From: a bacterium
GTDB taxonomy: Bacteria > Patescibacteriota > Minisyncoccia > UBA6257 > 2-01-FULL-56-20
Direction of reading: 5' to 3'
Assembly: GCA_027310965.1 (NCBI GenBank)
Contig: DAICZW010000001.1
Coordinates: forward strand, 37,236 to 101,235
DNA length: 64,000 nucleotides
Both the position numbers and the translations under genes were made by a program. This document shows positions 9,296-62,903 of the stretch, one piece after another; the stretch's first letter is position 1; every line of letters starts with the position of its first letter. The notes below the pieces were generated by a model, which saw only the letters and a list, made by a program, of their open reading frames with translations, made no database searches and had not been told where the DNA came from.

Positions 9296-9315
9296 GTATT
9301 TTTGCATTGCGCGTA

Positions 9316-28451: not shown

Positions 28452-28730
<279 letters not shown>

Positions 28731-29440: not shown

Positions 29441-29478
29441 GAGGGAGCGGATTTTCATTTTGAACGAACCATTATAGT

Positions 29479-29856: not shown

Positions 29857-29879
29857 GCTAAGAAACGATGCCATTCTCA

Positions 29880-29995: not shown

Positions 29996-30016
29996 AGTTG
30001 ATGAAATATTAAAATT

Positions 30017-31540: not shown

Positions 31541-31544
31541 CCAT

Positions 31545-31690
31545 TCTGTCGTCTTTGCGGAGGCGAGGATCCATGCTTTAGGCGTAGAAAACGGAAGGCA
31601 GAAAGTAGGAAGTAAGAAGGAAGTATGGATCCTCGACCAGAGCATGCTCTTGACCTAATCGAGGGTCGAGAACGGCGAAGGAGAGAAATT
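31545..31690. repeat. REP-like palindromic element pair in the atpA-atpG spacer
   Basis: CTGTCGTCTTTGCGGAGGCGAGGATCCATGCTTTAGG ... GGATCCTCGACCAGAGC. Confidence 0.6.
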
Positions 31691-31748
31691 TCCCTCATCG
31701 CTAAAGACTTCACGCCACTTTTCATTGTCAACTTTTGATTATTATCCA

Positions 31749-32684
31749 ATGGAATCTCTCCAAAATCTCAAGCGGCGCCTGAAGGGGGCGCAGAATATCG
31801 GGACGATCACGAAAGCGATGGAGCTTGTCGAGGTTACGAAAATGCGCAAAAGCCAGGAATACGCGCTCAATTCGCGTCCGTATTCGTATACCGCGCTCGG
31901 CATTTTGGGGATTCTTTCCATGCAGGTATATTCGCCACTGCCGAAACTTTTACGCGGGCGTCCGGTCAGGAAGACAGCGTTCATGCTTATCGCTTCGGAT
32001 AAGGGTCTTGCCGGATCGTTCAACAGCGCGGTCATCCGCAAATTTGAAAGTTTCATCCGCGCGCACGCTATCGACGTGTACGAAAAAAAATATTCCTTTA
32101 TCGCCGTCGGCCAGAAGGCGCGCGCCTATTGCGAACGCAGGAATCTTGCTCTTGCGCAGTCGTTCCGCCACATGGGCGATGCTTCAAAAATGGAAGAAGT
32201 GGAACCGATCGCCGATTTTTTGATCAAGGGCTACCTGCGGGAGGATTTCGACGAAGTAATCTTGTTTTCAACGGGTTTCGTGAGCGCTTTGCGTCAGGAT
32301 CCCATCATGCGCCAGCTCTTTCCGGTCACGTTCGCGAAAATAAAAGAAAGTATCGAGGAAACCGTTCCGCGGGCGGGGCGTTATTCGCACTATATCGATA
32401 TCGAATCCCTCGCGGGGCGGCAGAACGGGGACTATCTTATCGAGCCGTCCGCGAACGAAGTCATGGAAGAGCTTGCTCCCAAGCTTTTAAAAATACAACT
32501 GTACCATCTTATACTCGAGGCGAACGCGTCGGAACATTCGGCGCGGCGCGTGGCGATGAAGAACGCTTCGGAGAACGCCGAAGACCTTTCGGAAAAACTG
32601 AACGTCGTATATAATAAATCCCGCCAAGCGGCGATCACGAACGCGATTATCGAAGTGACGTCGGGCGCGGAAGCGGCGGCATAA
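31749..32684 (+). CDS. atpG: F0F1 ATP synthase subunit gamma
   Basis: MESLQNLKRRLKGAQNIGTITKAMELVEVTKMRK N-terminus. The start was moved from the ORF-track 31725 to the homologous Met. Confidence 0.9.
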   Translation: MESLQNLKRRLKGAQNIGTITKAMELVEVTKMRKSQEYALNSRPYSYTALGILGILSMQVYSPLPKLLRGRPVRKTAFMLIASDKGLAGSFNSAVIRKFESFIRAHAIDVYEKKYSFIAVGQKARAYCERRNLALAQSFRHMGDASKMEEVEPIADFLIKGYLREDFDEVILFSTGFVSALRQDPIMRQLFPVTFAKIKESIEETVPRAGRYSHYIDIESLAGRQNGDYLIEPSANEVMEELAPKLLKIQLYHLILEANASEHSARRVAMKNASENAEDLSEKLNVVYNKSRQAAITNAIIEVTSGAEAAA

Positions 32685-34199
<1,515 letters not shown>

Positions 34200-34202
34200 T
34201 TC

Positions 34203-34345
34203 CTGCATTCTCTGTCGTCCTCGCCCTATGGAGTGGCGGCTTCGCCTACTCCATAGGGCGAGGATCTACGCTTGAAACGTATAATACAAAAAGCAGAATG
34301 GAGAAAGAGAAGATGGAAGCATGGATCCTCGACCGGGGCGAGGAC
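34203..34345. repeat. REP-like palindromic element pair in the atpD-atpC spacer
   Basis: TCTGTCGTCCTCGCCCTATGGAGTGGCGGCTTCGCCTACTCCATAGGGCGAGGATC ... GGATCCTCGACCGGGGCGAGGACGACGG. Confidence 0.65.
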
Positions 34346-35577: not shown

Positions 35578-37155
35578 TTACAAATCGTTGCCCGTATACG
35601 AAAGATTGAAGCTCTTGTTGATGAGGGGAAAATCGGGAACCATATTGCCCTGGCCCGCATAACCGAGGATGGTCCAGTTCAAAAAAGAAGGATCGCGGAC
35701 ATCCACGCCGCTTATTTCGCCGCGCGGGCCGGTCGTTATGAAATAGACGATATCGCCGCGCCATCCTTCAACGATGCCGACCGCAGTAGCGTCTTTTTTG
35801 AGATTGATTTTATCGATTGCCGCCGCGGCAGTCCCGTCGGGAATTTTTTTCAAAGCTTCCGTGATAAGACGGTGGGATGCGTACGCTTCTTCAATGCGGA
35901 CATGGAAACGCGCGTACACGTCGCCGCTTTGATAGAGGGGAATTTTCGGTATAAGCCGGTCATAGGCGGCATATGGATAATCGATCCGCGCGTCCTTGTT
36001 GATGCCGACGGCTTTTCCCGCGACGCCGATAACGCCGTGGTTTTTCGCCTCATCGTACGGCGTCACGCCGGTTTCTTTCAGGCGGTTGATAAGCGAAGAA
36101 CTTTGCTCCGCGACCGCAATCACTTCCGAAAAATCTTTTATGATAGCGTCAAGTTCGCCGATGAGTCGCTGTTTCGTTCCCATTGCGATGTCTTTGGTAA
36201 CGCCGCCGATCGTATTGACGCCTCTCAAAAAACGGCTTCCGGTCGTCCGTTCGTTGATCTGCATGATCATTTCCCGCAGCCGCGCCCCGTGCGCTCCGCC
36301 GAAATTGAATCCGGTATCAAGCATGATGGCGCCGATGTCGCCGAAATGATTCGCCAACCGTTCCAGTTCGGCATAGACCGTCCTCAAATAGCGCGCCCGT
36401 TCAGGGACGTCGATGCCCGCCAATCGTTCGATGGCCTGCGAGAACGCGAGCGAATGGCTGAACGAGCTGTCTCCGGAAATTTTTTCCGACAAGCGGAGTT
36501 TTCCCTCAAGCGGGAGAATCCCGAATAATTTTACGCTGCCTTTATGGGTATATCCGAGCCGCGGTTCGAGCAGGACGATTTCTTCTCCCGCGACGCTGAA
36601 CCGGAAATGCCCCGGTTCGATGATACCGGCATGGATAGGCCCTACCGAAATCTCATAGATGCCTTCTCCCGCGACTTTTTGGAAATCGTATCGTTCGCGC
36701 GCGATCGCCGGTCTTGTTTGCCAGTTGAAATCATTGCGCAAAGGAAAAACGCCGCGCGGCCAATTTTCATGCAGGATCATGGCTTCTTTTTTCGGATGTC
36801 CCGCGGGATCCAGTCCGAAAAAAGTTTTTATTTTTCGTTCGTAGTTCCACGCTTCGTGGATGAACGGGGAGACCGACGGGAACTCATCCGCATTTTTTAC
36901 GCATATGAACGGAACAAGGAAAATATTTTCTTTCGGCGCGCCGAAGACATACCAGATTTTAAAATAACCGCTTTCATTTCTTTCGTCCGTCGCGGTGATG
37001 ATTTTGAGCGACAATGCTTCGTCCGCGTACATCTCTTTTATCGTCGCGACGATGGTATCGATAGGCACTTCAAAAGTAGCCGTATTTTCGGACGGGTCAA
37101 AATGGAAATTTTCGGGAAGATATTTTTTCAGTTTTTGGGGGATGGCGTGCGTCAT
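35578..37155 (-). CDS. Fused NuoC/NuoD-like (HycE/HyfG-like) large subunit of an Ehr-type complex; NiFe-binding cysteines absent
   Basis: N-terminal 30-kDa-subunit-like domain, then GPIHAGIIEPGHFRF...EPRLGYTHKGSVK (NuoD-like HRGxEK region, with no RxCGxC). C-terminus ...SFNLSYTGNDL lacks DPCxxC. Confidence 0.8.
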   Translation of the reverse strand: MTHAIPQKLKKYLPENFHFDPSENTATFEVPIDTIVATIKEMYADEALSLKIITATDERNESGYFKIWYVFGAPKENIFLVPFICVKNADEFPSVSPFIHEAWNYERKIKTFFGLDPAGHPKKEAMILHENWPRGVFPLRNDFNWQTRPAIARERYDFQKVAGEGIYEISVGPIHAGIIEPGHFRFSVAGEEIVLLEPRLGYTHKGSVKLFGILPLEGKLRLSEKISGDSSFSHSLAFSQAIERLAGIDVPERARYLRTVYAELERLANHFGDIGAIMLDTGFNFGGAHGARLREMIMQINERTTGSRFLRGVNTIGGVTKDIAMGTKQRLIGELDAIIKDFSEVIAVAEQSSSLINRLKETGVTPYDEAKNHGVIGVAGKAVGINKDARIDYPYAAYDRLIPKIPLYQSGDVYARFHVRIEEAYASHRLITEALKKIPDGTAAAAIDKINLKKDATAVGIVEGWRGDIVYFITTGPRGEISGVDVRDPSFLNWTILGYAGQGNMVPDFPLINKSFNLSYTGNDL

Positions 37156-37163
37156 AGCGGTTA

Positions 37164-38603
37164 TTAATAGGCTGCGGCGGCATTATGCAGCAAGGTGATA
37201 AGGAACGGCGGCAGAGAGAAACTAAAGCAGATGAAAATAATGACGAGCGCGAGCGGCGGAATGAGGATCCAATAATTCCGTTCTCCGGAACCGGAACCGA
37301 CGTCATCCGGCCGTTCGCCGAACATCATCGATGACGTATGTTTCAGGAATCCGGCGAAGACCAGCGCGAACGCAAGGATTGCGACGGCGGTAATCACGGG
37401 ATGCATGCCAATGCCGCCGGCCAAAATGGAAAACTCGGTCAAAAATATGCCGGACGGCGGCACGCCGGTGATGGCCAGGAATCCGACGATGAAAAGTATG
37501 CCCGTTATCGGCAGCGCCGCAAGCGCCCCCCGTACCTGTTTTATTTTGGTCGTGCTGTATTTCAAAAAGATATTTCCGGAGGAAAGGAACAGCGCCGGTT
37601 TCACGAGGGCGTGATAGACCATATGAAGAACGGCGGCAAGCGCGGCCAGTCCGCCGAATCCGAAGCCGAGCGCGACAATTCCCATATTTTCGATGCTGGA
37701 ATATGCCAGAAGCCGTTTGTAATTTTTTTGCGTCAAGATGGTGAATGCGGCCAAAATAATCGAAGCAAGCCCGAACCAGATCAGAAGCGTCTGGGAAAAG
37801 TGTACGCCGAGGACGCTGTCCGTGACTGCCTTGAAGCGGATGATCGCGAGGAATGCCACGTTGAGCAGGACGCCCGAAAGCAAAGCGCTGATCGGAACCG
37901 GCGCTTTGCTGTGCGCGTCGGGAAGCCATGTGTGCATGGGCACCAGGCCGGCTTTCGTGCCGTATCCTATAAGGACGAATATAAAAGCGATTTTCGCGAC
38001 GGCGGGATTAAGATGCCCGGCATTCGCAAAAAGCATTCCCCAGCTGACGAGTCCGGTTCCGTGGATGGACGTGAAGTAGAGTAGCGTTCCGAAAAAACCG
38101 AGCAACAAACCGACCGAATTGACCATCAGATATTTCCATGCCGCTTCCATCGCCGACGGCTTATTGTAAAAACTAATCAGGAATGCCGTCGAGAGCGTCG
38201 TTGCCTCTATCGAAATCCACATGATGATCGGATTGACCGTGGCGACGGCAAAGAACATCGCCAAAAGGAACAGGTTGAACAAAATAAAATATTGTTTGAC
38301 TCTGCGGAAGCCGATGATATTTTTTGCGGTCTCTTCCCGGAGATATCCTTTGGAATAGAACGCCGTGGCGACTCCGACCGCGGCGACGGCGAGCATGATG
38401 ATCGCGCCCAGCGCGTCGACGGAAAAAAGCGGCAAAAAACTGTACGTTCCGAAAGAAGCGACCTCTATCGCGATTGCGACCGCCGCCCCGAACGAGCAAA
38501 GCGAAGCGGCGATCGAAACGGTTTCGATTGTTTTTCTTTGTCTGCTTGCGATGCCCGTAAGCGCCGCAACGAACAATGACGCGATGATAATGACGATGGC
38601 CAT
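37164..38603 (-). CDS. NuoN/NuoM/HyfF-like proton-translocating antiporter-type membrane subunit
   Basis: 479 aa, ~14 TM segments, PF00361-like core (WLPDAHSKAPVPISALL...). Confidence 0.8.
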   Translation of the reverse strand: MAIVIIIASLFVAALTGIASRQRKTIETVSIAASLCSFGAAVAIAIEVASFGTYSFLPLFSVDALGAIIMLAVAAVGVATAFYSKGYLREETAKNIIGFRRVKQYFILFNLFLLAMFFAVATVNPIIMWISIEATTLSTAFLISFYNKPSAMEAAWKYLMVNSVGLLLGFFGTLLYFTSIHGTGLVSWGMLFANAGHLNPAVAKIAFIFVLIGYGTKAGLVPMHTWLPDAHSKAPVPISALLSGVLLNVAFLAIIRFKAVTDSVLGVHFSQTLLIWFGLASIILAAFTILTQKNYKRLLAYSSIENMGIVALGFGFGGLAALAAVLHMVYHALVKPALFLSSGNIFLKYSTTKIKQVRGALAALPITGILFIVGFLAITGVPPSGIFLTEFSILAGGIGMHPVITAVAILAFALVFAGFLKHTSSMMFGERPDDVGSGSGERNYWILIPPLALVIIFICFSFSLPPFLITLLHNAAAAY

Positions 38604-38607
38604 GTGA

Positions 38608-39258
38608 TTATTCTTCTTTTAAATGTTTCATCACGGTGGTTTCGAACGAGCCGAAATGGCGGTAGATCATCGACGCGAATATGGATGCGATGGTCACCCA
38701 GATGACAAGATTGAACATAATGCCCGCCTGAAGCGCCGGCGATTGTTCCAATCCCGAGAGAACGGAAAACGCCACAATCCCGTTTTCAAGAGAAAGAATG
38801 CCGACCATCTGGGATAAGATGCCCTTGCGGTTGATGATAAGCAGGAACGCTATCAGCATGACGGCGATGGCGAGTGTTATCATCGGCGCATGGTCCGGCA
38901 TGATGGCGACCAGCGGCGCGAATATCCGCGAATGCGCGAGCGCCGCCAGAAGCGCAACGGCCAAAAGGCTGAGCGGCACGTTCAAATAAGTGCTGGCGGA
39001 GAAGGTGAGGCGGTGCTTTTTTATCAATCGCGTGAAGAACAAAGGAGCGAAGACGACTTTGACGGCAAAGGTCAGAAGCGCGATCATGGCAAGCGACACG
39101 GCGTGCGTTTCGAAAAAAGAACCGAATAGGATCAGGGTTATTGCCGCGGATTGTATGGCGTAAAGCGCGATGACCATTGAGTTTTTTCTCGTCACGTGCA
39201 AAAAAACAACCGTGAGAAAAACGATGATTACGAAGAATGATAAAAAGTTATATGCCAT
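38608..39258 (-). CDS. HyfE-like small membrane subunit (216 aa)
   Basis: 7-TM protein the same length as E. coli HyfE, in the position between the NuoH-like and NuoN-like genes of hyf-type operons. Confidence 0.55.
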   Translation of the reverse strand: MAYNFLSFFVIIVFLTVVFLHVTRKNSMVIALYAIQSAAITLILFGSFFETHAVSLAMIALLTFAVKVVFAPLFFTRLIKKHRLTFSASTYLNVPLSLLAVALLAALAHSRIFAPLVAIMPDHAPMITLAIAVMLIAFLLIINRKGILSQMVGILSLENGIVAFSVLSGLEQSPALQAGIMFNLVIWVTIASIFASMIYRHFGSFETTVMKHLKEE

Positions 39259-39260
39259 GA

Positions 39261-40193
39261 TTACATTATTACCATGCCGATTGCGATAATGCCCAGGATA
39301 AACGAAGTAAGAAGGAGGTCGGGAAGCCGGAAAAATCTGAACTTGGCGATGCTCGATTCAAGCGCGGCTATTGCGGCGCAAAAAACAAGGATTTTCAGCG
39401 CAAAAATTCCCAGTCCGAAAGCTATGGCGCCCATGCTTGGCGAAATTGCGATGCCCCACGGGAAGAACAGGCTCGATCCGAGCGCGATGAAGATCGCGAG
39501 CTTGTTGGCCGACGCCCATTCCATCAGCGCGAGCTTCTTCCCTGAATATTCAAGGATCATCGCTTCGTGGATCATCGTGAGTTCGAGATGGGTTGCCGGA
39601 TTATCGAAAGGAAACCGCGCCGTTTCCGCAAGAAGGACAATCAGGAATCCCGTGAAAGCGATGAATATCGGAAGGAAAAAAGAATGTCCGTTTAAGGATA
39701 TCGCCGCGGCGATGGAAAATAAGTTCGTTGTTTTGGCGATGACGGCGAGCGCGAACAGCGAAAAGATCAATCCGCCTTCCGCGAGCGCCGCAACGGTCAT
39801 CTCGCGGCTCGAACCGAAGCCGCCGAAAGAGCTTCCGGCATCCATGCCTGCGAGCGCCAGAAAGAACGTGCCGATTGCGAGGAGGTAGACGAGCGCCAGA
39901 AGATCGCCGGTGAACTTATTGGACAGGAACGCGGCGAATGTCGGGATGCCCGCCGCGGCGGCGAGCGTTACCGCAAAAACGATATACGGCGCGGCGCGGA
40001 ACAGCCACGATGCGTCGGTGCTGATAATTTCGTCCTTGTGAAGAAGTTTCCAGATATCTTTATACGGCTGGAAAATTCCCGCTCCTGCGCGGTTTTGAAG
40101 CACCGCTTTCATTTTCCTGATGATGCCGAGCATGAGCGGCGCGATCATCGGTAAAAGAAATAATTGCAATGTCCAAAGCAGGATGGTGATCAT
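39261..40193 (-). CDS. NuoH/HycD/HyfC-like membrane subunit
   Basis: 310 aa, 8 TM segments, conserved QNRAGAGIFQPYKD and loop regions of the NuoH family. Confidence 0.8.
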   Translation of the reverse strand: MITILLWTLQLFLLPMIAPLMLGIIRKMKAVLQNRAGAGIFQPYKDIWKLLHKDEIISTDASWLFRAAPYIVFAVTLAAAAGIPTFAAFLSNKFTGDLLALVYLLAIGTFFLALAGMDAGSSFGGFGSSREMTVAALAEGGLIFSLFALAVIAKTTNLFSIAAAISLNGHSFFLPIFIAFTGFLIVLLAETARFPFDNPATHLELTMIHEAMILEYSGKKLALMEWASANKLAIFIALGSSLFFPWGIAISPSMGAIAFGLGIFALKILVFCAAIAALESSIAKFRFFRLPDLLLTSFILGIIAIGMVIM

Positions 40194-40196
40194 GGC

Positions 40197-42251
40197 TTAA
40201 AATAAAGATGCCGATAATAACGCCGCGAGCAGGACGATCAGCATGTAGAGAATATACGCATTGATGTTGCCGCTTTGTATCTTTTTTACGTATCCGGATA
40301 TTTTCATGAAACCGAACCGGATCGGATCGTAGAATCGCACCCGGTAAAAATCGGCAAGATGCATGGTCGCCGTTCTTGATTTCGGAACATAGCGCATCGA
40401 GGCGTCGTTGTATTCTATGTCGGTCTGGAAACTCGGTTTCAATATTCCCTGGAAGATCATAATAATGGATCGCGAGAACCCGGTCGCCGTTATTTCCATG
40501 CGGGGCGTGAGATCGGTGCCGCAATCCCACGTGGCGCCGGTTTTGATATTTTGTTTCCGGTTGACGAGATATTTGATCGCGACTACGGAAAGGGCGAGTG
40601 CCAGAATGATGATGGCGAACAGCGCCGGCGCGGAAACCGAAGCAAAGCCGTTCACCGCGATTGTCTGGGCGGGATGAACCGCAACAATCGATGCCGCGTC
40701 GCGCAAGCCGGAAATATTTTTTACGACGGCATTCAGGATGGAAACGATGGAACCGGAAAACAGGCCGAATACGAGCGACAGGAGCGCGAGTCCCGCCATG
40801 CCAAACTGCAAAGAAAATCCCGATTCCTTCGCGCATGCGGCTTCATGGCTTCGGGGACGGGCGAGGAATGTCGCGCCGAACGCTTTTACGAAACAGGCGA
40901 GCGCAAGGCCGCTTGTAAGGGCGAGCGTTCCGGCCGACAGGATGAAGATCCAGACGACCAGGGAAGAGAACGAATAAATACCCGCGAAGAGCGACTGGAA
41001 TGTCAGCCACTCGCTGAAAAAACCGTTAAAAGGAGGGAGCGCGGCGATGGCCATCGATCCTATGAGAAAGAAAAAGGCGGTTTCGGGCATCCGTTTCATG
41101 AGCCCGCCGTATTCTTCGATATTTCTTGTGCGCGTTCCCTCGATAACGGAGCCGGCGCTCAAAAATAACAATGATTTAAAGACGGCGTGGTTCAAAGTGT
41201 GGAAAAGCGCGGCGATCATGCCCAATGCCGCGAGTGCCGGCATCCCGAGCGACGAGAAAACAAGCGCGCTGCCGATGCCGAGCAGGATGATGCCGATATT
41301 TTCGATGCTGTGGTATGCCAGAAGGCGTTTGATGTCGTGTTCGGTCAGCGCATAAAGCACGCCCAGCAAGGCGGATACGGATCCGATGACGAGTATCGCG
41401 ACGCCCCACCATAACGGCGCCGTCGTAAAAACATCGAAAAATAATTTGATCATCATGAATATCCCCGTTTTGATCATGACGCCGGACATCAATGCGGATA
41501 CGTGCGAAGGGGCGGCGGGATGGGCGTCGGGAAGCCAGATGTGCAAAGGGATGATGCCCGCTTTCATGCCGAAACCGATGAATGAAAAAATAAAGATCAT
41601 GTTTTTCGCGAACATGGGTATGGCGGCGCTGTTCGCTTTGATAACGCCGAAGTCGAACGATCCGGTGTACCGGTATAAAAGAAGGAATGCGAGCATGATG
41701 AAAGCGGTGCCGATGTGCGTCATGATGAAATAGAGGGATCCGGCTTTGATATTTTTCGGGTCGTTCCGGTCGTAGATCACCAAAAAATACGATGCGAGCG
41801 ACATGATTTCCCAGACGATAAGAAACAAGATTGCGTTGGATGCCGTAACCACCATCAGCATGCCGGCGATGAAGAAATGGTAAAAAAATCCCAGGGTGCC
41901 GATGGTGTATTTTTTATAATAATGTTTGACGTATCCTATGCCGTAGATCGAAGCGAAAAGCGCCACCAATGAAATGATAAAAATAAAAAACGCGGACAGC
42001 GCGCCGACGGCGAACGATATCGATAAAAAAGGAGAGAGCGCCGCGGCGATATGGAATGATAATGTCGTTCCGGAAATGAATATGGAAAGCGCGAAAATGA
42101 TGCCCCAGAGCGACCCGCCGACGGCGAACGCGCTGCTCCAAAAATTTGCAAGCGCGTCATTTTTCCTGAACGCCAATGCGCCCAAGGCTCCCGCGGCGAA
42201 GAATGAAAGCAGCAATAAAAAACCGCCTTGCGATGCAATGGATGCGATCAT
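40197..42251 (-). CDS. NuoL/HyfB/MnhA-like large antiporter-type membrane subunit
   Basis: 684 aa, ~17 TM segments, WLPDAHPAAPSHVSALMSG core. Confidence 0.85.
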   Translation of the reverse strand: MIASIASQGGFLLLLSFFAAGALGALAFRKNDALANFWSSAFAVGGSLWGIIFALSIFISGTTLSFHIAAALSPFLSISFAVGALSAFFIFIISLVALFASIYGIGYVKHYYKKYTIGTLGFFYHFFIAGMLMVVTASNAILFLIVWEIMSLASYFLVIYDRNDPKNIKAGSLYFIMTHIGTAFIMLAFLLLYRYTGSFDFGVIKANSAAIPMFAKNMIFIFSFIGFGMKAGIIPLHIWLPDAHPAAPSHVSALMSGVMIKTGIFMMIKLFFDVFTTAPLWWGVAILVIGSVSALLGVLYALTEHDIKRLLAYHSIENIGIILLGIGSALVFSSLGMPALAALGMIAALFHTLNHAVFKSLLFLSAGSVIEGTRTRNIEEYGGLMKRMPETAFFFLIGSMAIAALPPFNGFFSEWLTFQSLFAGIYSFSSLVVWIFILSAGTLALTSGLALACFVKAFGATFLARPRSHEAACAKESGFSLQFGMAGLALLSLVFGLFSGSIVSILNAVVKNISGLRDAASIVAVHPAQTIAVNGFASVSAPALFAIIILALALSVVAIKYLVNRKQNIKTGATWDCGTDLTPRMEITATGFSRSIIMIFQGILKPSFQTDIEYNDASMRYVPKSRTATMHLADFYRVRFYDPIRFGFMKISGYVKKIQSGNINAYILYMLIVLLAALLSASLF

Positions 42252-42829
42252 GATAGTGAGGCTGATTTTTTATGCTCGATATCGTTGAGGATCGCCAAAA
42301 GGTGGCGGAGGATGATTTTGGGGGAAGGAGGATCGCCCGGGATCTGATAATCGACGGGAATCACGTTATGCGCGCCGTCCAAAACCGCATATGATCCTCT
42401 ATAAATACCGCCGTCGATTGCGTCATCGCCGACCGCCACGACGATCTTCGGATCGGGCGTCGCCCGGTATGCGCGGACCAGCGCTTCGCGCATATTCCTT
42501 GTCACGGGGCCGGTCACCATAAGCATGTCGGCGTGTCTTGGTGAAGCGACAAAATGGATGCCGAAGCGTTCAATGTCGTAAAAAGCGTTCGAAAGCGCGA
42601 CCAGTTCCTGTTCGCAGGCGTTATCGGATCCGGCGTCGACCTGACGTATCGCGAGCGACCCGCGGAATAATTTCTTGACGCGGTCGCTTATTTTTCCTCC
42701 GAGAGCGGCGACCTCGTCTTTTTCCATAGCGCTGTCACGGAACGGGATGACGGGGCTTTTCGTCCGGAATATTTTTGTGAGTAGCCTCAACATGGATTGA
42801 ATGCGGATTGAATTATGATAATGCCGCAC
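42248..42829 (-). CDS. NuoB-like (hydrogenase small-subunit-like) protein with three of the four N2 [4Fe-4S] cysteine ligands replaced
   Basis: Aligns to NuoB across RFG...SPRHADMLMVTG...PDPKIVVAVG...VIPVDYQIPG. The Cys motifs become CCxxE>ACEQE, GTC>GPV, GAC>GDD and PGCPP>PGDPP. Confidence 0.8.
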   Translation of the reverse strand: MRHYHNSIRIQSMLRLLTKIFRTKSPVIPFRDSAMEKDEVAALGGKISDRVKKLFRGSLAIRQVDAGSDNACEQELVALSNAFYDIERFGIHFVASPRHADMLMVTGPVTRNMREALVRAYRATPDPKIVVAVGDDAIDGGIYRGSYAVLDGAHNVIPVDYQIPGDPPSPKIILRHLLAILNDIEHKKSASLS

Positions 42830-42869
42830 ATTATAATTTGCAAGAAAAAAATAACGATTTTTTTAAAGC

Positions 42870-42945
42870 GTGGATCCTCGCCCTGTGGAGTAGGCGAAGT
42901 CGCCACTCCATAGGGCGAGTCTCCGCGAGGACGACAAGAAAAGGC
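42870..42945. repeat. REP-like palindrome upstream of the Ehr-like operon
   Basis: GGATCCTCGCCCTGTGGAGTAGGCGAAGTCGCCACTCCATAGGGCGAGTCTCCGCGAGGACGAC. A near-identical copy occurs at 48700..48790. Confidence 0.65.
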
Positions 42946-43598: not shown

Positions 43599-43809
43599 TG
43601 AGAGTATATCCCAAGAGGAAATCTTTCGGTAGCGCGGTTATTTCGCGGAATGCCGCCGATTCCCTGAAACGCGACCCGCTTGATTTACCCCGAAAGAAAG
43701 GATAGAATTTTCGATAAAGATGCGTTGGTATTCATTTATAGAACCTGCTTTAAAAGTAAGACAGAGAGTTTGCTTAAAAAGTTATTTTTGAGACAGGTTC
43801 TCATCAATG

Positions 43810-43884: not shown

Positions 43885-44166
43885 CCCTTTGGGCACGTTT
43901 GAGATACCGCTGGGGCCTTCATGGTTCCAGCGGGTTTGCGACGGCCGATGCTCTTTAATCTCCACCGGGCAGCCTCTAAAGCGATAAATACTACAACTTG
44001 TTTCCCTGCCGGTCCTTGCCGCAGGGTCCATGCAGGAAAGTCCGAAAACCTTTGTTTTCTGATATACCGACCTCATGAGACGGGTTCTTTTTGCAACAGG
44101 AGGATCAGGAAGCGCCGCCTGCAAGTCATAGACTTCAAACGCGTCCGCCCAAGCGCGCATAAAAAT

Positions 44167-48599: not shown

Positions 48600-48830
48600 A
48601 GCGCCGATTCTGTCGCGGCATTTTCCCCTCCGCCGTCCCTTCGAAGGAGGGGATCCGTGCTTTTCGTCTTAGTTTGTGAGTTTTAAATCGTGAATTATAA
48701 AATTCTTAAAGCGTGGATCCTCGCCCTGTGGAGCAGGCAAAGCCGCCACTCCATAGGGCGAGTCTCCGCGAGGACGACAGAAAAAGCATATAGATCCTCG
48801 ACCAGGCCGAGGACGACGGAAAAGATGGGT
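48600..48830. repeat. Cluster of REP-like palindromes
   Basis: CCCCTCCGCCGTCCCTTCGAAGGAGGGGATCC hairpin; the GGATCCTCGCCCTGTGGAGCAGGCAAAGCCGCCACTCCATAGGGCGAGTCTCCGCGAGGACGAC copy; GGATCCTCGACCAGGCCGAGGACGACGG. Confidence 0.65.
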
Positions 48831-50209: not shown

Positions 50210-50974
50210 ATGCGCATATTGCTCATTGAGGATGAGAAGGGTATTGCGGATTTTATTATAGCCGGGCTGCGCGCGGAACGGTTCGCGGTGGATTGGGCGA
50301 GTACCGCCGAAAAAGGACTGCTTCTGGCGAAAGTCAATCCGTATGATGCGGGGGTCTTCGACATACGGCTTTCGGACCCGTCCTCCGGCGCTTTACCTTC
50401 CCATGTTTTGTCGGGCAAAACCGTCGGCGTTTCGTCCCATAAAATTTCGGATGGCAAAGTCTGGGGCGGCGAGCGTGACGGGCTTTGTATTCTGGAAGAA
50501 GTGCGCAGGAAAGGAAAAATATTTCCGATCATCATGCTTTCGGTGACGGGCGACGCGCAGACGAAAATCGACGCCCTGAACCTCGGCGCCGATGATTATC
50601 TGACGAAGCCGTTCTCTATGGCGGAACTTATCGCGCGCATCCGCGCGCTCTTGCGCCGGGAAAAGAAAATAACGGAGCAGGTTCTCGCCGTTGCCGATCT
50701 TACGATGGACACGCGTGCGCATACGGCTGCGCGCGGCGGCAAGCCGGTAAAACTGAACCGCAAGGAATTCGCGCTGCTCGAATATTTTATGCGGAATCCC
50801 GGAACGATGCTCACGCGGAGCATGATTCTGGATCACGTGTGGGACATGAGCGTGGATCCGTTCACGAACACGGTGGATGTCCATATGCGGTTCCTGCGGG
50901 AGAAGATTGATGACGGGCGCAAGAAAAAATTATTGAAGACCGTGCACGGCTACGGATATAAAATAGAGGAATGA
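50210..50974 (+). CDS. OmpR-family response regulator with a ~32-aa insertion in the receiver domain
   Basis: MRILLIEDE...DIRLS[insert DPSSGALPSHVLSGKTVGVSSHKISDGKVWGGER]DGLCILEEVRR...KPF, and a winged-helix C-terminus (LLEYFMRNPGTMLTRSMILDHVW). Confidence 0.85.
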   Translation: MRILLIEDEKGIADFIIAGLRAERFAVDWASTAEKGLLLAKVNPYDAGVFDIRLSDPSSGALPSHVLSGKTVGVSSHKISDGKVWGGERDGLCILEEVRRKGKIFPIIMLSVTGDAQTKIDALNLGADDYLTKPFSMAELIARIRALLRREKKITEQVLAVADLTMDTRAHTAARGGKPVKLNRKEFALLEYFMRNPGTMLTRSMILDHVWDMSVDPFTNTVDVHMRFLREKIDDGRKKKLLKTVHGYGYKIEE

Positions 50975-50984
50975 GGACTACGTT

Positions 50985-51060
50985 TTTCCTCTTCGGAAGC
51001 AGGGGCTCTCTTAACTGCTTCCGAAGAGGAAAAACTCCGTTTGTGGCAGAAGCAACGGAA
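50985..51060. repeat. Long perfect hairpin with the conserved loop GGGCTCTCTTAA (bidirectional terminator candidate after the response-regulator gene)
   Basis: TTTTCCTCTTCGGAAGCAG-GGGCTCTCTTAA-CTGCTTCCGAAGAGGAAAAA followed by CTCCGTTTG...AATAAGAAAC, as in the 61011..61210 array. Confidence 0.6.
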
Positions 51061-51162
51061 TGGCTTTTTTAAAACTCCTTTGCGAATAAGAAACGCTTTG
51101 TCCGGCGAAAGGAAATATGAAAACGGATTTTTTAATATAATAAGTCTTAATATAATAACGCG

Positions 51163-53325
51163 GTGAATAACGGATTGCTTTTGCAATATGTCGTTATCGG
51201 CCTTGATCTGGCGGTTGCTTTTCTGGTGCTTGTTGACCGTCCGAGAAATCCGTTCAACCGCTCGTTTTTCATTTTCGCTTTCGGCGCCGCGCTATGGATC
51301 TTTTGCGCGGACATGGTTTCGCTCGGAAATAACCTCGCGTTCTTCAGGCCGGCATTATGCGGCGCGGAGATCATGATCTTGGGTTTCGTCCTTTTGGCGA
51401 AATTTTTTCCGGGCGACAAAGAAGACAACGGAAAAATAACGGGGAATTTTTTATTTTTTCTCCTTCCGTGGCTTATCATTTTCATCCTTACTTTCTCGCA
51501 ACTCATCATCCGTTTCGCCGATATCAATAACGACGGCTACCTCGATGCGGTCGGCGGCATCCTCGTTCCGGCGCGTTTTGCGGTGATGGCGGGATATCTT
51601 CTATGGAGCAGTTTCATATTTTTCGGGAAGTACCGGAACCTTGCGCCGTCCGCGCGTGTCCGGAATTTTTCTTTTGTCGCCGGCGCGGGCTTATTCGCCG
51701 GCGCGGTGCTTTCGTGCGATGTTTTCTTTCTTATGTTCCGCATTTTCGGCATGGCGATGATCGGCAGTCTGTTTTCCCTTTTTTTCACGGGATGCATGGC
51801 GTACGCGATCATGCGCTACCGGCTCATGGATATCCGGCTGATCGTAAAAAGAGGGGCGGTCTATGTTATCGCCATATTCATGGTCGCCGTTTTTTATTTC
51901 GGAGCATCTTTTTTCCTTCAGGAATTTCTTCATGATAACGACGCCCTTACGTATCCGGCAAGCGCCGTTGCGGCCGCTGTCTTGTGCGTGTTCGGGTTTC
52001 TCTACCTTAAACGCGAATTCGAGGAAATAACCGACCGTTTTTTCTTCCGCGGTGAATATGATTATTTTACGGCTGCGCGCGACCTGAGGAATGCATTTTG
52101 CTCCACGATTGCCCTCGATGATTTTCTCGGGTCCGTAAGCGGTGTTTTTTCCGATACCATCAAGCCGGAACGGATCGTTTTCTTTCTTGATACCGCGCAT
52201 CAGCCGTATTTTTTCGACGGCGTTTCGCGGAAGCCGCCGCCTTCCGCCGCCGAAAACCGTTACGGAGAACTGATTAAAAACTTCCGTGCGCTTCCTTCGG
52301 AACCTGTTTTTATGGAAGAGCTGGGACGCGCCACGAACGATGTCCAGCCGCGGCGGAGGAAAAAATACGAATCGCTTTGCGTCGCCGCAAAAAGAGCGCG
52401 CATCGGCGCAATCATCCCGATTTTTTCGAAAGAAAAAATAAGCGCGATTTTATTGCTGGGCGATAAGCGGTCGGAAGTTCCGTTTTCTTCGAAAGACAGG
52501 GAATTATTGTCGATCGCTTCGCATCAGGCGGGCATGGCGATCGAGAATGCGATGCTGTATGCGGCGCTGCGCCGCCATACGGAAGAACTTGAACGCCGCG
52601 TTTACGAACGCACGGAGCGGATAAAAAACATGTACGACGGGCAGGCGCGATTTTTGGCGGATCTTTCGCACGAATTCCAGACGCCGATTTCGATATTGAA
52701 AGGGAATATCGAACGTCTGGAGAAAATAAACAGCACGAAAGGCAGGGACGAATTTTATGCAATGGAAACGACGCTTGACCGGCTTTCGCGCCTCATCCGC
52801 GACGTCCTGGGTCTGGCAAGGTTAAATTCTTCTAAAACAAACCTTGCGAAGAAGCGGGTCAATGTGGAAAAATTGATCGAGGAGGCGTACGATGACTGTC
52901 TTACTCTCGCGAAAAACAAAGGCATCGCGTTGTCGTTCTCAAGCGAGAAATGTTTTATTTGCGGAAGTGTCGATAAATTAAAGGAAGTTCTTTTGAACCT
53001 GATCGGTAACGCATTGAAGCATACGCCCGCCGGCGGCGCCATTATGCTTTCCGCGAAAGCCGTCGATGACGAGGTTGCCCTCGCGGTTGCGGATACCGGA
53101 TCGGGGATTTCCCATAAAAACCTCCCGCATGTTTTTGAAAGGTTTTATAAGATTGACGGCGCGGGTTTTACGGGAACGGGGCTTGGTCTTTTTATCTGCC
53201 GCCAGATCATCGAGGCGCATAACGGCACGATCATTGCGGAGAGCCAGCCGGGGAACGGCAGCCGTTTTATCATTCACCTGCCTGCCGCGCCGTTACGCAA
53301 TCGGAAAAAATTTGATATAATATAA
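51163..53325 (+). CDS. Sensor histidine kinase (multi-TM sensor, GAF-like, HisKA and HATPase_c domains)
   Basis: H-box LADLSHEFQTPISIL; N, G1 and G2 boxes (NLIGNALKHT, DTGSGI, GTGLGLFICRQIIEAHNG). Confidence 0.85.
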   Translation: MNNGLLLQYVVIGLDLAVAFLVLVDRPRNPFNRSFFIFAFGAALWIFCADMVSLGNNLAFFRPALCGAEIMILGFVLLAKFFPGDKEDNGKITGNFLFFLLPWLIIFILTFSQLIIRFADINNDGYLDAVGGILVPARFAVMAGYLLWSSFIFFGKYRNLAPSARVRNFSFVAGAGLFAGAVLSCDVFFLMFRIFGMAMIGSLFSLFFTGCMAYAIMRYRLMDIRLIVKRGAVYVIAIFMVAVFYFGASFFLQEFLHDNDALTYPASAVAAAVLCVFGFLYLKREFEEITDRFFFRGEYDYFTAARDLRNAFCSTIALDDFLGSVSGVFSDTIKPERIVFFLDTAHQPYFFDGVSRKPPPSAAENRYGELIKNFRALPSEPVFMEELGRATNDVQPRRRKKYESLCVAAKRARIGAIIPIFSKEKISAILLLGDKRSEVPFSSKDRELLSIASHQAGMAIENAMLYAALRRHTEELERRVYERTERIKNMYDGQARFLADLSHEFQTPISILKGNIERLEKINSTKGRDEFYAMETTLDRLSRLIRDVLGLARLNSSKTNLAKKRVNVEKLIEEAYDDCLTLAKNKGIALSFSSEKCFICGSVDKLKEVLLNLIGNALKHTPAGGAIMLSAKAVDDEVALAVADTGSGISHKNLPHVFERFYKIDGAGFTGTGLGLFICRQIIEAHNGTIIAESQPGNGSRFIIHLPAAPLRNRKKFDII

Positions 53326-59722: not shown

Positions 59723-59756
59723 AAATATGATTGAGTTTTATTTGAAAGAATATCAA

Positions 59757-59788
59757 GGCGCTCCCCTGAAAAGGAGCGCTTTTTTTGT
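59757..59788 (+). terminator. Rho-independent terminator after purB
   Basis: AGGCGCTCCcctgaaaaGGAGCGCTTTTTTTG. Confidence 0.7.
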
Positions 59789-59922
59789 TATTTTACTCCG
59801 AGCTTAACGCCGTTTTCTTGCCGGTAACGCGAAGGATGGAGAAATTTCCGCAACGCGTTGAATATGGCCATATGGCCGCGCGAAACTTCATAAATTATCC
59901 GCATGTATGTTATAGTGGTGCA

Positions 59923-60996
59923 ATGGCAAAACTATCCATCGGCATCGTGGGGCTTCCGAATGTCGGGAAATCGACGCTGTTTAAACTTATTACGAAACAG
60001 GATGTGACGATTGCGAACTATCCGTTTGCGACAATAGATCCCAATGTCGGCGTCGTTGCGGTGCCGGATGAGCGGCTCGAAAAATTGAACGATCTCAGTA
60101 AATCGAAAAAGAAAATTCCGGCGGTCGTGGAGTTCTTGGACATCGCGGGACTCGTGAGGGGCGCGAATAAAGGCGAAGGACTCGGCAACCAGTTCCTGTC
60201 GCACATCCGCGAGACGCAGGCGATCGTAATCGTATTGCGGATGTTTCGGAATGCAGAAATCATCCATGTCGAGAATTCCGTCGATCCTTTGCGCGATCTG
60301 GAAATTATCAATACCGAGCTTATTTTGAAAGATCTTGAAACGGTCGAAAAGCGGCTTACCAAAGCCGAGGCGGAAGCACGGAGCGGCAAGAAGGAAGCGC
60401 GTGAGGACAGGGAGCTTTTGGAAAATCTGAAAGCGCGTCTTGAAAAAGGCGATCTGCCGGTTGCGGACGCGGAATGTATGGAAAGCATCCGCAAAAATAT
60501 CAGGATGATCGATCTGAACTTGTTGACAATGAAGCGGCAGATTTATTTATTGAACGGCGAAGAAAAAGAAGCGCCTGATGCGTTGAAAAATAAAATAGCA
60601 TCGCTTGCCCCCAAAAAGTTTGCGGAACAAAATTCAGACCGCTGCGGCGTGGGATTTGTCGTCGCAGATCTTTCCGCCGCGGCAGAAGGTTCCGGAGGGG
60701 AGATTCCTGAGCTTATCAAAAAAGCGTACGAAGTTCTGGGTCTCGCAAGTTTTTTCACGACGGGCGAGGACGAGACGCGCGCGTGGACGATTGAGAATGG
60801 CACGAAAGCGCCGCAGGCGGCGGGCGTCATCCATACCGATTTCGAGAAAAAATTCATCCGGCTGGAAGTCATTGACTGCGAAAAATTACTCGCGGCCGGC
60901 GGCTGGACGCAGGCGAAGCAGAAAGGATGGGTGCGGCTTGAGGGAAAGGAATACGAAGTGCGGGACGGCGATATTGTCGTCGTGCGGCACGGATAA
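59923..60996 (+). CDS. ychF: Ribosome-binding ATPase YchF (Obg-like)
   Basis: MAKLSIGIVGLPNVGKSTLF G1 motif and a C-terminal TGS-domain region. Start moved from the ORF-track 59785 to the homologous Met. Confidence 0.9.
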   Translation: MAKLSIGIVGLPNVGKSTLFKLITKQDVTIANYPFATIDPNVGVVAVPDERLEKLNDLSKSKKKIPAVVEFLDIAGLVRGANKGEGLGNQFLSHIRETQAIVIVLRMFRNAEIIHVENSVDPLRDLEIINTELILKDLETVEKRLTKAEAEARSGKKEAREDRELLENLKARLEKGDLPVADAECMESIRKNIRMIDLNLLTMKRQIYLLNGEEKEAPDALKNKIASLAPKKFAEQNSDRCGVGFVVADLSAAAEGSGGEIPELIKKAYEVLGLASFFTTGEDETRAWTIENGTKAPQAAGVIHTDFEKKFIRLEVIDCEKLLAAGGWTQAKQKGWVRLEGKEYEVRDGDIVVVRHG

Positions 60997-61010
60997 GGGA
61001 CTTCGCATTT

Positions 61011-61210
61011 TTATTTTTGAGGGACGGGCTCTCTTAAGTCCCTCAAAAATAAAAATACTCCGTCTGATGCGGAAATAAGAAACGAGGGACGGGTTCTCTT
61101 AAGTCCCTCAAAAATAAAAATGCTCCGTCTGATGCGGAAACAAAGGAGGGGTTCTTTTTGCTCCTTCGCGAATAAAAATGCTCCGTCTGGTGCGGAAATA
61201 AAAGAATGAA
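61011..61210. repeat. Tandem array of three ~62-bp units, each a hairpin with loop GGGYTCTCTTAA/GGGTTCT plus a conserved 3' tail AAAATRCTCCGTCTGRTGCGGAAA
   Basis: GAGGGACGGGCTCTCTTAAGTCCCTC repeated three times with compensatory stem changes in the third copy (AAGGAG...CTCCTT). Confidence 0.7.
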
Positions 61211-61272
61211 TCTTGATTAAAAAATCATTAAAGACATTTTGACGGGAGGTATCGGAAGGATAGAATGGAGGA

Positions 61273-61812
61273 ATGAAAAAGAAAAATTCCGGCGGCAATA
61301 ATATCGGGTTGAAAGAACTTTTCAGCGAAGTGAAGAAAATAGGTTCTCGCATGGACGATCGCGATGTCGAAATAAGGAAGATCGGTGTCCTCATGGAAAG
61401 CCATGATATTGAAATAAAAAAGATAGGCGTCATTTTGGAAAGCCATGATGTCGAAATAAGGAAGATTGGTGTCCTTTTGGAAGAACGCGACGACAAACTC
61501 GACTTGGTTTTGGAAGGATATGCCGCGCTGGATAAAAAGATCGATGATCTTCACGAAGAGATGAATGAACGGTTTGCGATTGTTGATTTTAAATTCGGCA
61601 TTGTTTTTGAAGAAATAAACGGGATAAAAGGCGAGATTATTGTAATAAATGGACGATTGGAAAGAATTGAAGGACGGCTCGAAAAACTCGAAGTGCGGAT
61701 AGGGAAAGTCGAAGTACGGCTGGAAAAAGTCGAGGGAACGCTTGTGGAAATTCGCAGCGATTTAAATGCCGAAACGGATTGCGGCGAATTGGCTGTATTT
61801 AAAAGCCTATAA
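61273..61812 (+). CDS. Coiled-coil hypothetical protein with internal 14-aa (42-nt) tandem repeats
   Basis: RDVEIRKIGVLMES / HDIEIKKIGVILES / HDVEIRKIGVLLEE, and later RLERIEGRLEKLEVRIGKVEVRLEKVEG. Confidence 0.55.
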   Translation: MKKKNSGGNNIGLKELFSEVKKIGSRMDDRDVEIRKIGVLMESHDIEIKKIGVILESHDVEIRKIGVLLEERDDKLDLVLEGYAALDKKIDDLHEEMNERFAIVDFKFGIVFEEINGIKGEIIVINGRLERIEGRLEKLEVRIGKVEVRLEKVEGTLVEIRSDLNAETDCGELAVFKSL

Positions 61813-62007
61813 CTTATATCAAGATAGTCCGATAGGCAGCCGTAGGTTCTCTTCGCTCACTAATATCACGTGCGTAAGTTTGCGGGATGGCGGCGCGCCG
61901 CCGGCTTTGCGGCGCAAACCGTTCCGGCGGTTTGAAACGAGTGCTATACCCCGCCGCGTGAGCGCGCGGAGCTTCATTTTTTTTGAGACGGGTTCTATAC
62001 TGTTTTT

Positions 62008-62727
62008 ATGGCGGATAAATTTTCTGAGCTTAAAAAACTCGAGGCGGAAATGGTGGCGGATGCGTCGTTGCCGTTGCGCGAATCGAACTTAGTGTTCGGC
62101 GAGGGAAATCCTGATTGCGCCGTGATGTTCGTCGGCGAAGCGCCGGGCATGAACGAAGATCGTTTGCGCCGGCCGTTCGTCGGCCGTGGCGGACAGCTGT
62201 TGGACGGGATGATGCGAAACATCGGTTGGAAGCGCGAAGACGTTTATATCACGAATATCGTAAAGCGCCGTCCGCCGGATAACCGTGATCCGCTGCCGGA
62301 GGAAATTGCGGCTTATAAGCCGTATCTCGCGCGGCAGATCGCCATCATCCGTCCGCCGGTTATCGTTACGCTCGGCCGGTTCGCGATGCATTATTTTCTT
62401 CCCGATGCGAAGATGATGCGCGACCATGGCCGGGTGTTTGCCGTTCCCCGGGAGCCGTTTGAGCAAGCAGAGAATGAAGGTGCCTTTCGTCGTCCCGGCG
62501 AAGAATCACCGGCTGGGGATTATCTCATTTTTCCCGTGTTGCATCCCGCGGCGGCGCTCCGGTCGCCGCAGCAGATGATGCTTCTTTTGAAGGAAGATTT
62601 TAAAAAATTGCCGAATATCATTAAGGGCGATTTTATTCCCGTAATCGCGACCCCCGTATTTTCCATCGGCTCCGCGCGAAAAGAAAACAAAAATCCGGGA
62701 AAAGAAAAGCAGAGAGCGTTGTTTTAG
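62008..62727 (+). CDS. Uracil-DNA glycosylase, family 4
   Basis: VMFVGEAPGMNEDRLRRPFVGRGGQLL (GEAPG motif A) and HPAAALR motif B, with a C-terminal extension. Confidence 0.85.
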   Translation: MADKFSELKKLEAEMVADASLPLRESNLVFGEGNPDCAVMFVGEAPGMNEDRLRRPFVGRGGQLLDGMMRNIGWKREDVYITNIVKRRPPDNRDPLPEEIAAYKPYLARQIAIIRPPVIVTLGRFAMHYFLPDAKMMRDHGRVFAVPREPFEQAENEGAFRRPGEESPAGDYLIFPVLHPAAALRSPQQMMLLLKEDFKKLPNIIKGDFIPVIATPVFSIGSARKENKNPGKEKQRALF

Positions 62728-62903
62728 AACCCGTCCTAAAAGCATGCCGGCGGGGATTGCCGGCCGTCGGCAGCGAGGAGAAAATAAATGCGTCCGCGCA
62801 TTCATTTTCTCAGAGCGAACCGGCGGATGAAACAGAGTTTCATAAAATTTCCGTAAGACCTGCGGATACTGCTTAAAAAGCTGCTTTTGAGACGGGTTCT
62901 ATG
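62726..62903. mobile_element. MITE-like repeat element, copy 3, with both terminal inverted repeats intact
   Basis: Starts AGAACCCGTCCTAAAAGCATGCC and ends GCTTTTGAGACGGGTTCT. The left end overlaps the UDG stop codon. Confidence 0.6.

Follow-up and report, generated by a model that had tools for sequence, protein, structure and literature searches.

The tandem array that lies directly behind ychF in a 64,000-nt stretch of contig DAICZW010000001.1 (hereafter the window), from a bacterium of the candidate phyla radiation (CPR), is made up of genuine copies of an intergenic hairpin repeat whose family, borne by a small CPR clade of the Minisyncoccia/Paceibacteria type, is undescribed. A full unit consists of an 8-nt foot (GGACTYCG), a 20-nt arm, a 12-nt loop (GGRYTCYYTTRR), a complementary 20-nt arm and an 18-nt tail (CTCCGYYTGKKGCRGAAA), the last G of the foot pairing with the first C of the tail. 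The family is documented by the anatomy of its units, the covariation of their stems, the conservation of foot and tail and the persistence of the element at an orthologous site. Tentatively, and by a mechanism that we infer, we read these units as lineage-specific structured repeats similar to the repetitive extragenic palindromic (REP) sequences and the bacterial interspersed mosaic elements (BIMEs), and as being read through their single-stranded motifs.

The array spans positions 60998-61198 on the + strand, as do all its parts, and follows the YchF gene (59923-60996; Pfam YchF-GTPase_C and MMR_HSR1), whose stop codon TAA (60994-60996) ends 2 nt before the first foot begins. Three units are arranged head-to-tail directly 3′ of this stop, as a first inspection of the letters alone (the sequence-only reading) had described with slightly different coordinates: Tandem Repeats Finder (TRF) detected a 65-nt and a 58-nt period, at 96% and 80% matches respectively, and a repeat search grouped the three units with a copy at 50996-51055 into one four-member family (D1). 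Unit 1 comprises the foot GGACTTCG (60998-61005), the 5′ arm CATTTTTATTTTTGAGGGAC (61006-61025), the 12-nt loop GGGCTCTCTTAA (61026-61037), the 3′ arm GTCCCTCAAAAATAAAAATA (61038-61057), complementary to the 5′ arm and paired with it in both RNA and DNA folds, and the conserved 18-nt tail motif CTCCGTCTGATGCGGAAA (61058-61075). Unit 2 (61084-61140) shows a 7-bp stem, the loop GGGTTCTCTTAA, a 3′ arm as in unit 1 and a tail. Unit 3 (61143-61198), the ancestral half unit, has a 6-bp stem (AAGGAG/CTCCTT) around the loop GGGTTCTTTTTG, followed by the conserved stretch CGCGAATAAAAATG and the tail CTCCGTCTGGTGCGGAAA. In units 2 and 3 the stem is therefore reduced to 7 and 6 bp, with loop, complete 3′ arm and tail kept. 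The hairpins proposed earlier for all three units were recovered; the 7-bp stem assigned to units 1 and 2 is correct for unit 2, whereas in unit 1 it extends to about 19-20 bp (TTTTTATTTTTGAGGGAC / GTCCCTCAAAAATAAAAA plus outer pairs) or, when counted outward from the loop and including the foot-G/tail-C pair, to 20 Watson-Crick pairs and one A.C pair.

Unit 2 is 95% identical to unit 1 across 60 nt, scores 79.7 bits with a covariance model (R2) and was found to have no counterpart in the orthologous arrays of three related contigs (L050, L053 and L059). Its identity to unit 1 and this absence mark it as a tandem copy of recent origin, derived from the 3′ two-thirds of unit 1, so that the array is composed of a full unit, a recent partial copy of it and an ancestral half unit. 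The half units orthologous to unit 3 in L050 and L053 carry compensated short stems, AAACAG/CTGTTT and AAACAT/ATGTTT.

The second locus of the window (50975-51114, + strand) contains a full unit and a decayed half unit, and follows a response-regulator gene (Pfam Response_reg and Trans_reg_C) with the stop codon TGA at 50972-50974. In the full unit (50975-51052), the foot GGACTACG comes directly after the TGA, a loop identical to that of unit 1 (GGGCTCTCTTAA, 51003-51014) is enclosed by a perfect 21-bp stem (50982-51035), and the tail reads CTCCGTTTGTGGCAGAAG. The sequence-only reading had recognized the perfect stem and the identical loop and had counted 20 bp rather than 21; the motif AATAAGAAAC, which it had taken for a part of this copy's tail, belongs to the decayed half unit at about 51060-51114. 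The latter retains a loop remnant (GGCTTTTTTAAAA), a 3′ stretch (CTCCTTTGCGAATAAGAAACG) that resembles those of unit 3 and of the related contig L051, and a tail remnant (CTTTGTCCGGCGAAAGGAAA). The full unit scored 97.6 bits with covariance model R1 and its RNA fold reached -44.7 kcal/mol, and the half unit is a weak R2 match (10.8 bits, 51071-51114); E-values from these models are rough. Two TATAAT hexamers just before the start of the kinase gene that follows were seen by eye and were not flagged by a strict promoter scan. In the response regulator itself (50210-50974), the Pfam receiver match covers residues 88-145 only, and in the N-terminal half ~35-40 aa appear to be inserted behind the region where the phospho-acceptor is expected. 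The contig L054 was considered as an empty site for the response-regulator/kinase locus and rejected, its upstream gene not being the orthologue.

The occurrence of the array by chance could be excluded by three kinds of evidence. The loop 12-mer with at most one mismatch is found in 64 kb only at the three family sites, its only exact matches being those in unit 1 and at 51003; the tail 18-mer is present in three copies against 0.05 expected; and folding z-scores were -5.3 for unit 1, -6.9 for the unit at 50975 and, on each strand, about -6 for the complete array, while unit 3 alone is not significantly stable (z = -0.8). Loop matches including two mismatches amount to five in total, which is within shuffle expectation, and the two found at two mismatches are unrelated sites.

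The basic element of the family is ~140 nt long and consists of a long-hairpin unit with a stem of 20-21 bp, followed by a half unit made of a 6-7 bp stem, a loop as in the full unit, a conserved stretch rich in A (TTYGCRAATAAGAAA-like) and another tail. This full-then-half arrangement was observed at both window loci and in L050, L053, L051, L001 (units C+D) and L057 (units C+D), and the octamer GGACTYCG precedes the full units of L001, L050, L053 and L057. Foot, loop and tail each carry a GRCTCY core at a spacing of ~30 nt, and CTCCG is directly repeated on either side of the palindrome. Loop variants across the family include GGGCTCTCTTAA, GGACTCCCTTAA, AGGTTCTCTTTG, GATCTCCCTTAA, GGGTTCTTTTTA and others, the first bases being GGGC, GGAC, AGGT or GATC.

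The claim that the stems vary and compensate proved true also beyond the window. In the 22-pair stem, compared among ten full units of six genomes, 98.6% of cells are paired and both sides are altered in 18 of the 22 pairs; none of 500 shuffles reached the observed level, and slid controls were 42-52% paired. With half units included (16 units in all), the inner 7 bp show 98.2% pairing and both-side changes in six of the seven pairs. Between units, the arms represent divergent descendants of a single ancestral sequence. The orthologous units compared are those behind ychF in the window, L050, L053 and L059. To set these changes against a neutral rate, for which a single gene served as benchmark, we used the fourfold-degenerate sites of ychF, which are 46-63% identical between orthologues (pooled, 53%). 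Pooled over the three orthologue pairs that have fourfold data (window, L050 and L053), the arms are 60% identical (p = 0.33 against the fourfold sites), the loops 72% (p = 0.034) and foot plus tail 88% (p = 1.4e-9); the tail alone ranges from 83 to 94%. The arms differ at 5-9 positions per species pair and all these differences, or all but one, are compensated. By this comparison, the arms drift at the neutral rate and yet stay complementary, and foot and tail are constrained more strongly than the loop. A conserved loop recognized by a partner, as first proposed, is therefore only part of the picture: the loop is moderately conserved and the strongest conservation resides in foot and tail, which any model of recognition must place at its centre no less than the loop. 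Arms that are neutral yet paired, between flanks under purifying selection, would imply a sequence-specific reader of the hairpin. A mini-hairpin within the tail (TCCGT/GCGGA) folds in silico and was rejected for want of covariation, showing no both-side changes and one broken pair in 8 of 16 units.

As regards the level at which pairing is constrained, ten intact stems contain 204 Watson-Crick, two G.U and three A.C pairs and no other mismatch. In a helix selected as RNA, G.U is normally far better tolerated than A.C, and transversion-type swaps (e.g., A-U to U-A) cannot proceed via a G.U intermediate; such swaps account for 15 of 42 compensated changes (~36%) between orthologous stems and for 70 of 185 (38%) across all stems. 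These counts, like those of orientation reported below, are small and not decisive for RNA versus DNA. The symmetric mismatch spectrum points to a strand-symmetric constraint, such as might act on a DNA hairpin or on a transcript of both strands. Alternatively, it could reflect mutational copying of one arm onto the other, the template-switch "quasipalindrome correction" known from the Escherichia coli literature, a process that could yield covariation without selection on pairing.

The same data bear on the possibility that the arrays encode a functional RNA, acting in trans or in cis as an independent or 3′-untranslated-region-derived multi-hairpin small RNA, whose C/U-rich motifs (CUCYCUU in the loop, CUCCG in foot and tail) would bind a protein in the manner of a sponge or pair with the purine-rich Shine-Dalgarno regions of mRNAs. 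Tandem hairpins with conserved single-stranded motifs and covarying stems are consistent with such an RNA, the clade's GGAG-type ribosome-binding sites (e.g., GGAGGA before the ATG at 61273) complement the CUCC-type motifs, and at four loci a divergent gene begins on the 5′ side of the element, leaving room for a promoter of its own. However, G.U represents only 1% of the stem pairs and is no commoner than A.C, which is unusual for a helix selected as RNA, the tail mini-hairpin lacks covariation, and scans detected no promoter or terminator bracketing the arrays. Neither an orientation bias relative to the flanking genes nor an Rfam relative was observed: at gathering threshold Rfam 15 gave nothing, and at E-values up to 10 it gave only generic long-hairpin (miRNA-precursor) models, far below threshold. 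We regard an RNA of this kind as an unlikely explanation, and one acting in trans as nonetheless a serious rival.

All family copies are intergenic, lying between open reading frames (ORFs). The host genome holds three loci in about 71 kb (the window plus a decayed copy past its end, L047), and an identical array is present in two further assemblies of the host strain (NCBI GCA_027308915.1 and a Logan assembly). Further loci were found in seven related contigs, all relatives being metagenomic contigs; the best named YchF homologues belong to metagenome-assembled genomes labelled Minisyncoccia / Candidatus Paceibacterota, at about 70-72% identity. A metagenome scan with a loop-N20-tail pattern yielded the overlapping contigs L001 and L002, which carry an array of family units with very different 20-21 bp stems. 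L050, L053 and L059 have a full unit at the orthologous site, 0-9 nt beyond the ychF stop, L051 carries a copy at a non-ychF locus, and L057 a mosaic array of roughly 400 nt. The element was not found behind ychF in L049, L051/L052, L054-L056 and L060-L064, whose YchF is about 74-84% identical to that of the window. Half and full units combine differently between arrays, and the mosaic arrays, including the three-unit array of the window, are products of local tandem duplication and decay. With respect to the flanking genes, two loci are in sense orientation (ychF; response regulator/kinase), three in antisense (L047, L051 and L057), and one lies between divergent genes (L001).

The loop-N20-tail pattern had no match in a collection of species-representative genomes; a tail-only scan of that collection gave 44 single matches, spread over unrelated phyla, that lack any loop or hairpin upstream and are thus attributable to chance, and scans of viral contigs gave no match and then six chance matches without hairpins. 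Since these scans returned only hairpin-less chance matches, the family appears to be confined to a narrow, poorly sampled CPR lineage. Literature searches retrieved no description of such repeats in Parcubacteria or Patescibacteria.

Some relatives' arrays contain a second hairpin module (GACATTCAATGTCC-AGGCTNCGC-GGACATTGAATGTC) that is absent from the window. A 13-bp perfect palindrome, GACATTSAATGTC, likewise absent from the window, occurs paired as a hairpin in the arrays of L001 (~680-720), L053 (7806-7845) and L057 (10652-10690 and 10893-10930), and as a single copy beside the -10 box of recO (L057 3315; L053 ~7850); by its sequence it looks like the operator of a dimeric regulator. In L054/L055, a reverse-transcriptase gene (9015-10004; RVT_1, 329 aa) directly precedes ychF, the start of which it overlaps.

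This distribution has to be weighed against a purely selfish origin, in which a non-autonomous element would be moved as single-stranded DNA by a structure-specific enzyme encoded elsewhere (e.g., of the HUH/Y1, IS200/IS605 or REP-associated tyrosine transposase (RAYT) type). Foot, loop and tail would then be the determinants of recognition and cleavage, the palindrome would be kept by DNA template switching, and there would be no host function. The dispersal of copies in either orientation at unrelated loci across genomes fits this view, as do the full array of L053 against the reduced remnant in its sister L057 (96% YchF identity), the CTCCG direct repeat on both sides of the palindrome and the strand-symmetric mismatch spectrum without G.U excess. 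Moreover, full and half unit carry similar direct-oriented hairpins, resembling the left and right ends of IS200/IS605, which bear similar hairpins in direct orientation. On the other hand, neither the 64-kb window nor the related loci examined yielded a transposase or HUH gene, the stem differs from copy to copy with no sign of recent bursts of copying, and an empty target site (uninterrupted foot plus tail, GGACTCCGTCTGG...) was not found among the sequences compared. Above all, the copies at the ychF site keep foot and tail although the fourfold sites are nearly saturated, which is not expected of an inert selfish copy. This persistence across near-saturated neutral divergence favours a host-level constraint, and we consider a purely selfish element doubtful, although a serious rival too.

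According to the REP/BIME-like reading that we favour, the stem would be a mere scaffold, required only to pair, and the information would reside in the single-stranded foot, loop and tail, whose motifs a host protein would presumably recognize. Perfect pairing might be maintained by selection, by quasipalindrome correction at the DNA level, or by both. If it is co-transcribed, the hairpin (-30 to -45 kcal/mol) would be expected to stop 3′ exonucleases or to draw in RNases specific for double strands, and by analogy with REP elements it could define and protect the 3′ ends, and thereby the stability, of the ychF and response-regulator mRNAs.

Such a hairpin would not work as a canonical terminator. 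Both window loci lie between a stop codon and the promoter of the next gene, where no other terminator-like site was found, and their hairpins are very stable, so that termination at the ends of ychF and of the response-regulator gene had to be considered, as the sequence-only reading had suggested. However, the 5′ arm contains the T-run and the 3′ arm the A-run, so that no U-tract comes behind the stem on either strand; canonical terminators do exist in the host, with the opposite polarity (A-rich 5′, T-rich 3′; e.g., 59755-59790), and in the arrays the scan criteria were reached by weak 5-bp minus-strand tail hairpins only. A terminator role would also leave the conserved foot and tail unexplained. 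On these sequence grounds we judge terminators very unlikely.

Several points weigh against the REP/BIME-like reading. The sample is limited to 10-11 intact full units from about seven genomes, and these sequences are mutually related. Should template switching alone keep the palindrome perfect, covariation would be no evidence of function, and only the conservation of foot and tail would argue for it. The mixed orientation of the loci (two sense and three antisense, in co-directional gene pairs) does not favour a sequence-specific role at the RNA level, and co-transcription is a premise, transcription of the element being assumed. No candidate partner protein was found among about 57 window ORFs, which in Pfam searches were housekeeping proteins or had no match, nor was a RAYT (Y1 HUH transposase) gene found among these ORFs of the 64-kb window. 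Traits that define REP sequences are also missing: there is no GTAG foot, the stems are not common within the genome, and the units are in direct rather than alternating order.

The same Pfam searches of about 57 window ORFs revealed no Nop, Cas, transposase, HUH or reverse-transcriptase gene. It is rather unlikely, in our opinion, that the element is the nucleic-acid half of an unrecognized CPR protein-nucleic-acid system, either a mobilization by a hairpin-recognizing recombinase or HUH enzyme or an RNA-protein module with a "programmable" stem; in such a system a structure-specific enzyme or binder would read foot, loop and tail and leave the 20-nt arm free to vary.

Downstream of the array, a putative promoter (TTGACG-16-TAGAAT, 61239-61266), identified by promoter scan and conserved in L050, precedes an ORF of 179 aa (61273-61812) that has no Pfam match and whose orthologue follows the array in L050. 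This ORF holds three 42-nt (14-aa) tandem coding repeats at 61362-61482. Here and elsewhere, -10-like hexamers (TATAGT, TAGAAT and TATAAT) are placed only 5-7 nt before start codons (59910-59925, 61261-61275 and 51138-51165), a spacing that suggests leaderless or near-leaderless mRNAs in this host.

The window also contains a family, of ~140-175 nt, that resembles miniature inverted-repeat transposable elements (MITEs), at 2894-3138, 20729-20871 and 62727-62900, with inverted ends TAGAACCCGTCTCAAAAGC / GCTTTTGAGACGGGTTCTA. The loop core ACGGGYTCT had been proposed to be common to the hairpin units and to the MITE end, and a shared binding factor had been suggested. The MITE end TGAGACGGGTTCT has the conserved motif ...CTTTTGAGACGGGTTCT, and units 1 and 2 read TTTTGAGGGACGGGYTCT. 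Only GGGYTCT is shared, however: "AC" is variable stem sequence in the hairpin family, which elsewhere reads CAG-GGG, CAT-GGG or CAG-GGA, and the match extends to GAG(GG)ACGGGYTCT in units 1 and 2 alone. On the two strands of the window together GGGYTCT was counted 23 times, where our estimate for random sequence is roughly 16. Since the similarity rests mostly on variable stem bases, the link is unsupported, and a shared binding factor would be speculative. The two families also differ in design, the MITE having conserved inverted ends and a conserved 140-nt body and the hairpin family variable arms.

Solo MITE ends were found at 43766-43806, ~61975-61996, ~11498-11530 (- strand) and ~44070-44088, and some lie directly upstream of tRNA-Asp (43808) and of the start of the UDG gene (62008); this placement raises the possibility that the end motif might double as a regulatory or promoter-proximal signal. 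A second structured repeat family, GTCGTCC-CCGC-GGAG-GCGG-GGATCCRYGCTTT, has at least seven copies with a covarying 4-6 bp stem and a GGAG/GAAG loop, starting at 4323, 4440 (-), 7941 (-), 22847, 29361, 31548 and 48632, some of them forming inverted pairs ~120 nt apart (4323/4440). An 84-nt repeat at 42860-42943 and 48703-48786 is 93% identical between its copies and includes a hairpin of 15-17 bp (CTCGCCCTRTGGAGT...ACTCCATAGGGCGAG), to which a third one near 34236 (~34219-34266) is related. Finally, a complex-I-like/Mrp-type module (35578-42829, -) adjoins a full F-type ATP synthase operon (27696-34199, +), a neighbourhood notable for a CPR bacterium. The module includes 30-kDa and 49-kDa domains fused in one ORF, two antiporter-like subunits and NuoH-, NuoK- and NuoB-like genes.

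CPR bacteria have genomes of about 1 Mb with scant non-coding DNA and, to our knowledge, almost nothing is known of their RNA or DNA regulatory elements; the comparative evidence that this family provides is unusually clean. Identification of the reader of these hairpins, be it an RNA-binding protein, a nuclease or a structure-specific recombinase, would make expression control or genome dynamics accessible in bacteria that do not grow in culture on their own. The family also lends itself to telling selection on pairing apart from the correction of palindromes by template switching.

Among known systems, MITEs have conserved terminal inverted repeats flanked by a target-site duplication. The arms of the hairpin family are inverted repeats that vary between copies; CTCCG is directly repeated on either side of the palindrome, and no empty site was found. 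Integron attC sites are recognized by structure, with conserved bases only at the base of a variable stem, and are located at gene 3′ ends. Their R″/R′ feet are mutually complementary and part of the stem, whereas foot and tail of the hairpin family are direct repeats (CTCCG), and extrahelical bases, a cassette array and an integrase are lacking; attC was rejected on these defining features. The small RNAs CsrB/RsmZ and RsaE/RoxS display short conserved single-stranded motifs on variable-sequence stems in tandem hairpins. Unlike CsrB/RsmZ, most loops of the hairpin family are GGGCTC or GGGTTC without GGA and the stems, perfectly Watson-Crick, reach a far greater length (21 bp); the array is not bracketed by a promoter or terminator, and no window ORF matches CsrA. 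A Csr-type sponge was rejected on the grounds of the loops, the missing bracketing signals and the lack of a CsrA match in the window.

Arrays of tandem interspaced guide RNA (TIGR), which have been reported from CPR bacteria, are built of 36-nt units in which an edge repeat, a 9-12 nt spacer A, a loop repeat and a 9-12 nt spacer B follow one another, the spacers being non-complementary, and a gene for a Nop-domain Tas protein is adjacent (Faure et al., 2025; PMC12045711). In a stem-loop variant, the stems are "variable but consistently palindromic" and the spacers lie inside a large loop (PMC12045711). The likeness to the hairpin family consists of two short conserved repeats (loop and tail) alternating with variable segments of equal length, and of the occurrence in CPR bacteria, so that the array could superficially be taken for a guide-RNA array of the TIGR or CRISPR type with the 20-nt arms as spacers. 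In our units, however, the arms are mutually complementary over 20 nt around a 12-nt conserved loop, so that each "spacer" of a unit would be the exact reverse complement of its partner, and the repeats have a period of 58-65 nt and not 36. The arms are diverged copies of one ancestor rather than unrelated acquisitions, no arm matched anything outside the elements among the sequences compared, and neither a Nop/Tas nor a Cas gene is present within 64 kb; a Nop-domain gene was also not found in the Pfam lists of related loci. CRISPR arrays are built of identical direct repeats of 25-36 nt, between which lie unique spacers of similar size, and have cas genes nearby. That the array is not a CRISPR had already been stated in the sequence-only reading and is borne out, its variable segments being paired inverted copies with no cas genes in the window. 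A guide array is thus essentially refuted.

REP sequences and BIMEs are short intergenic palindromes that occur in either orientation and in variable mosaic clusters, often at gene 3′ ends or between cistrons; as RNA hairpins they can protect the upstream mRNA, and their units are recognized by host proteins. The differences from the hairpin family are clear, since the foot is GGACTYCG in all full units, with no GTAG, the units follow each other head-to-tail where REP units alternate, and loop and single-stranded flanks are conserved. REP stems are common within a genome, whereas the arms of unit 1, of the unit at 50975 and of the L047 copy are unrelated to one another; the copy number also looks modest, with three loci in about 71 kb. 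Nevertheless, both are short, palindromic, multi-copy and exclusively intergenic units, and the variable presence among close relatives, the occurrence in either orientation and the mixed combinations of units are REP/BIME-like behaviour.

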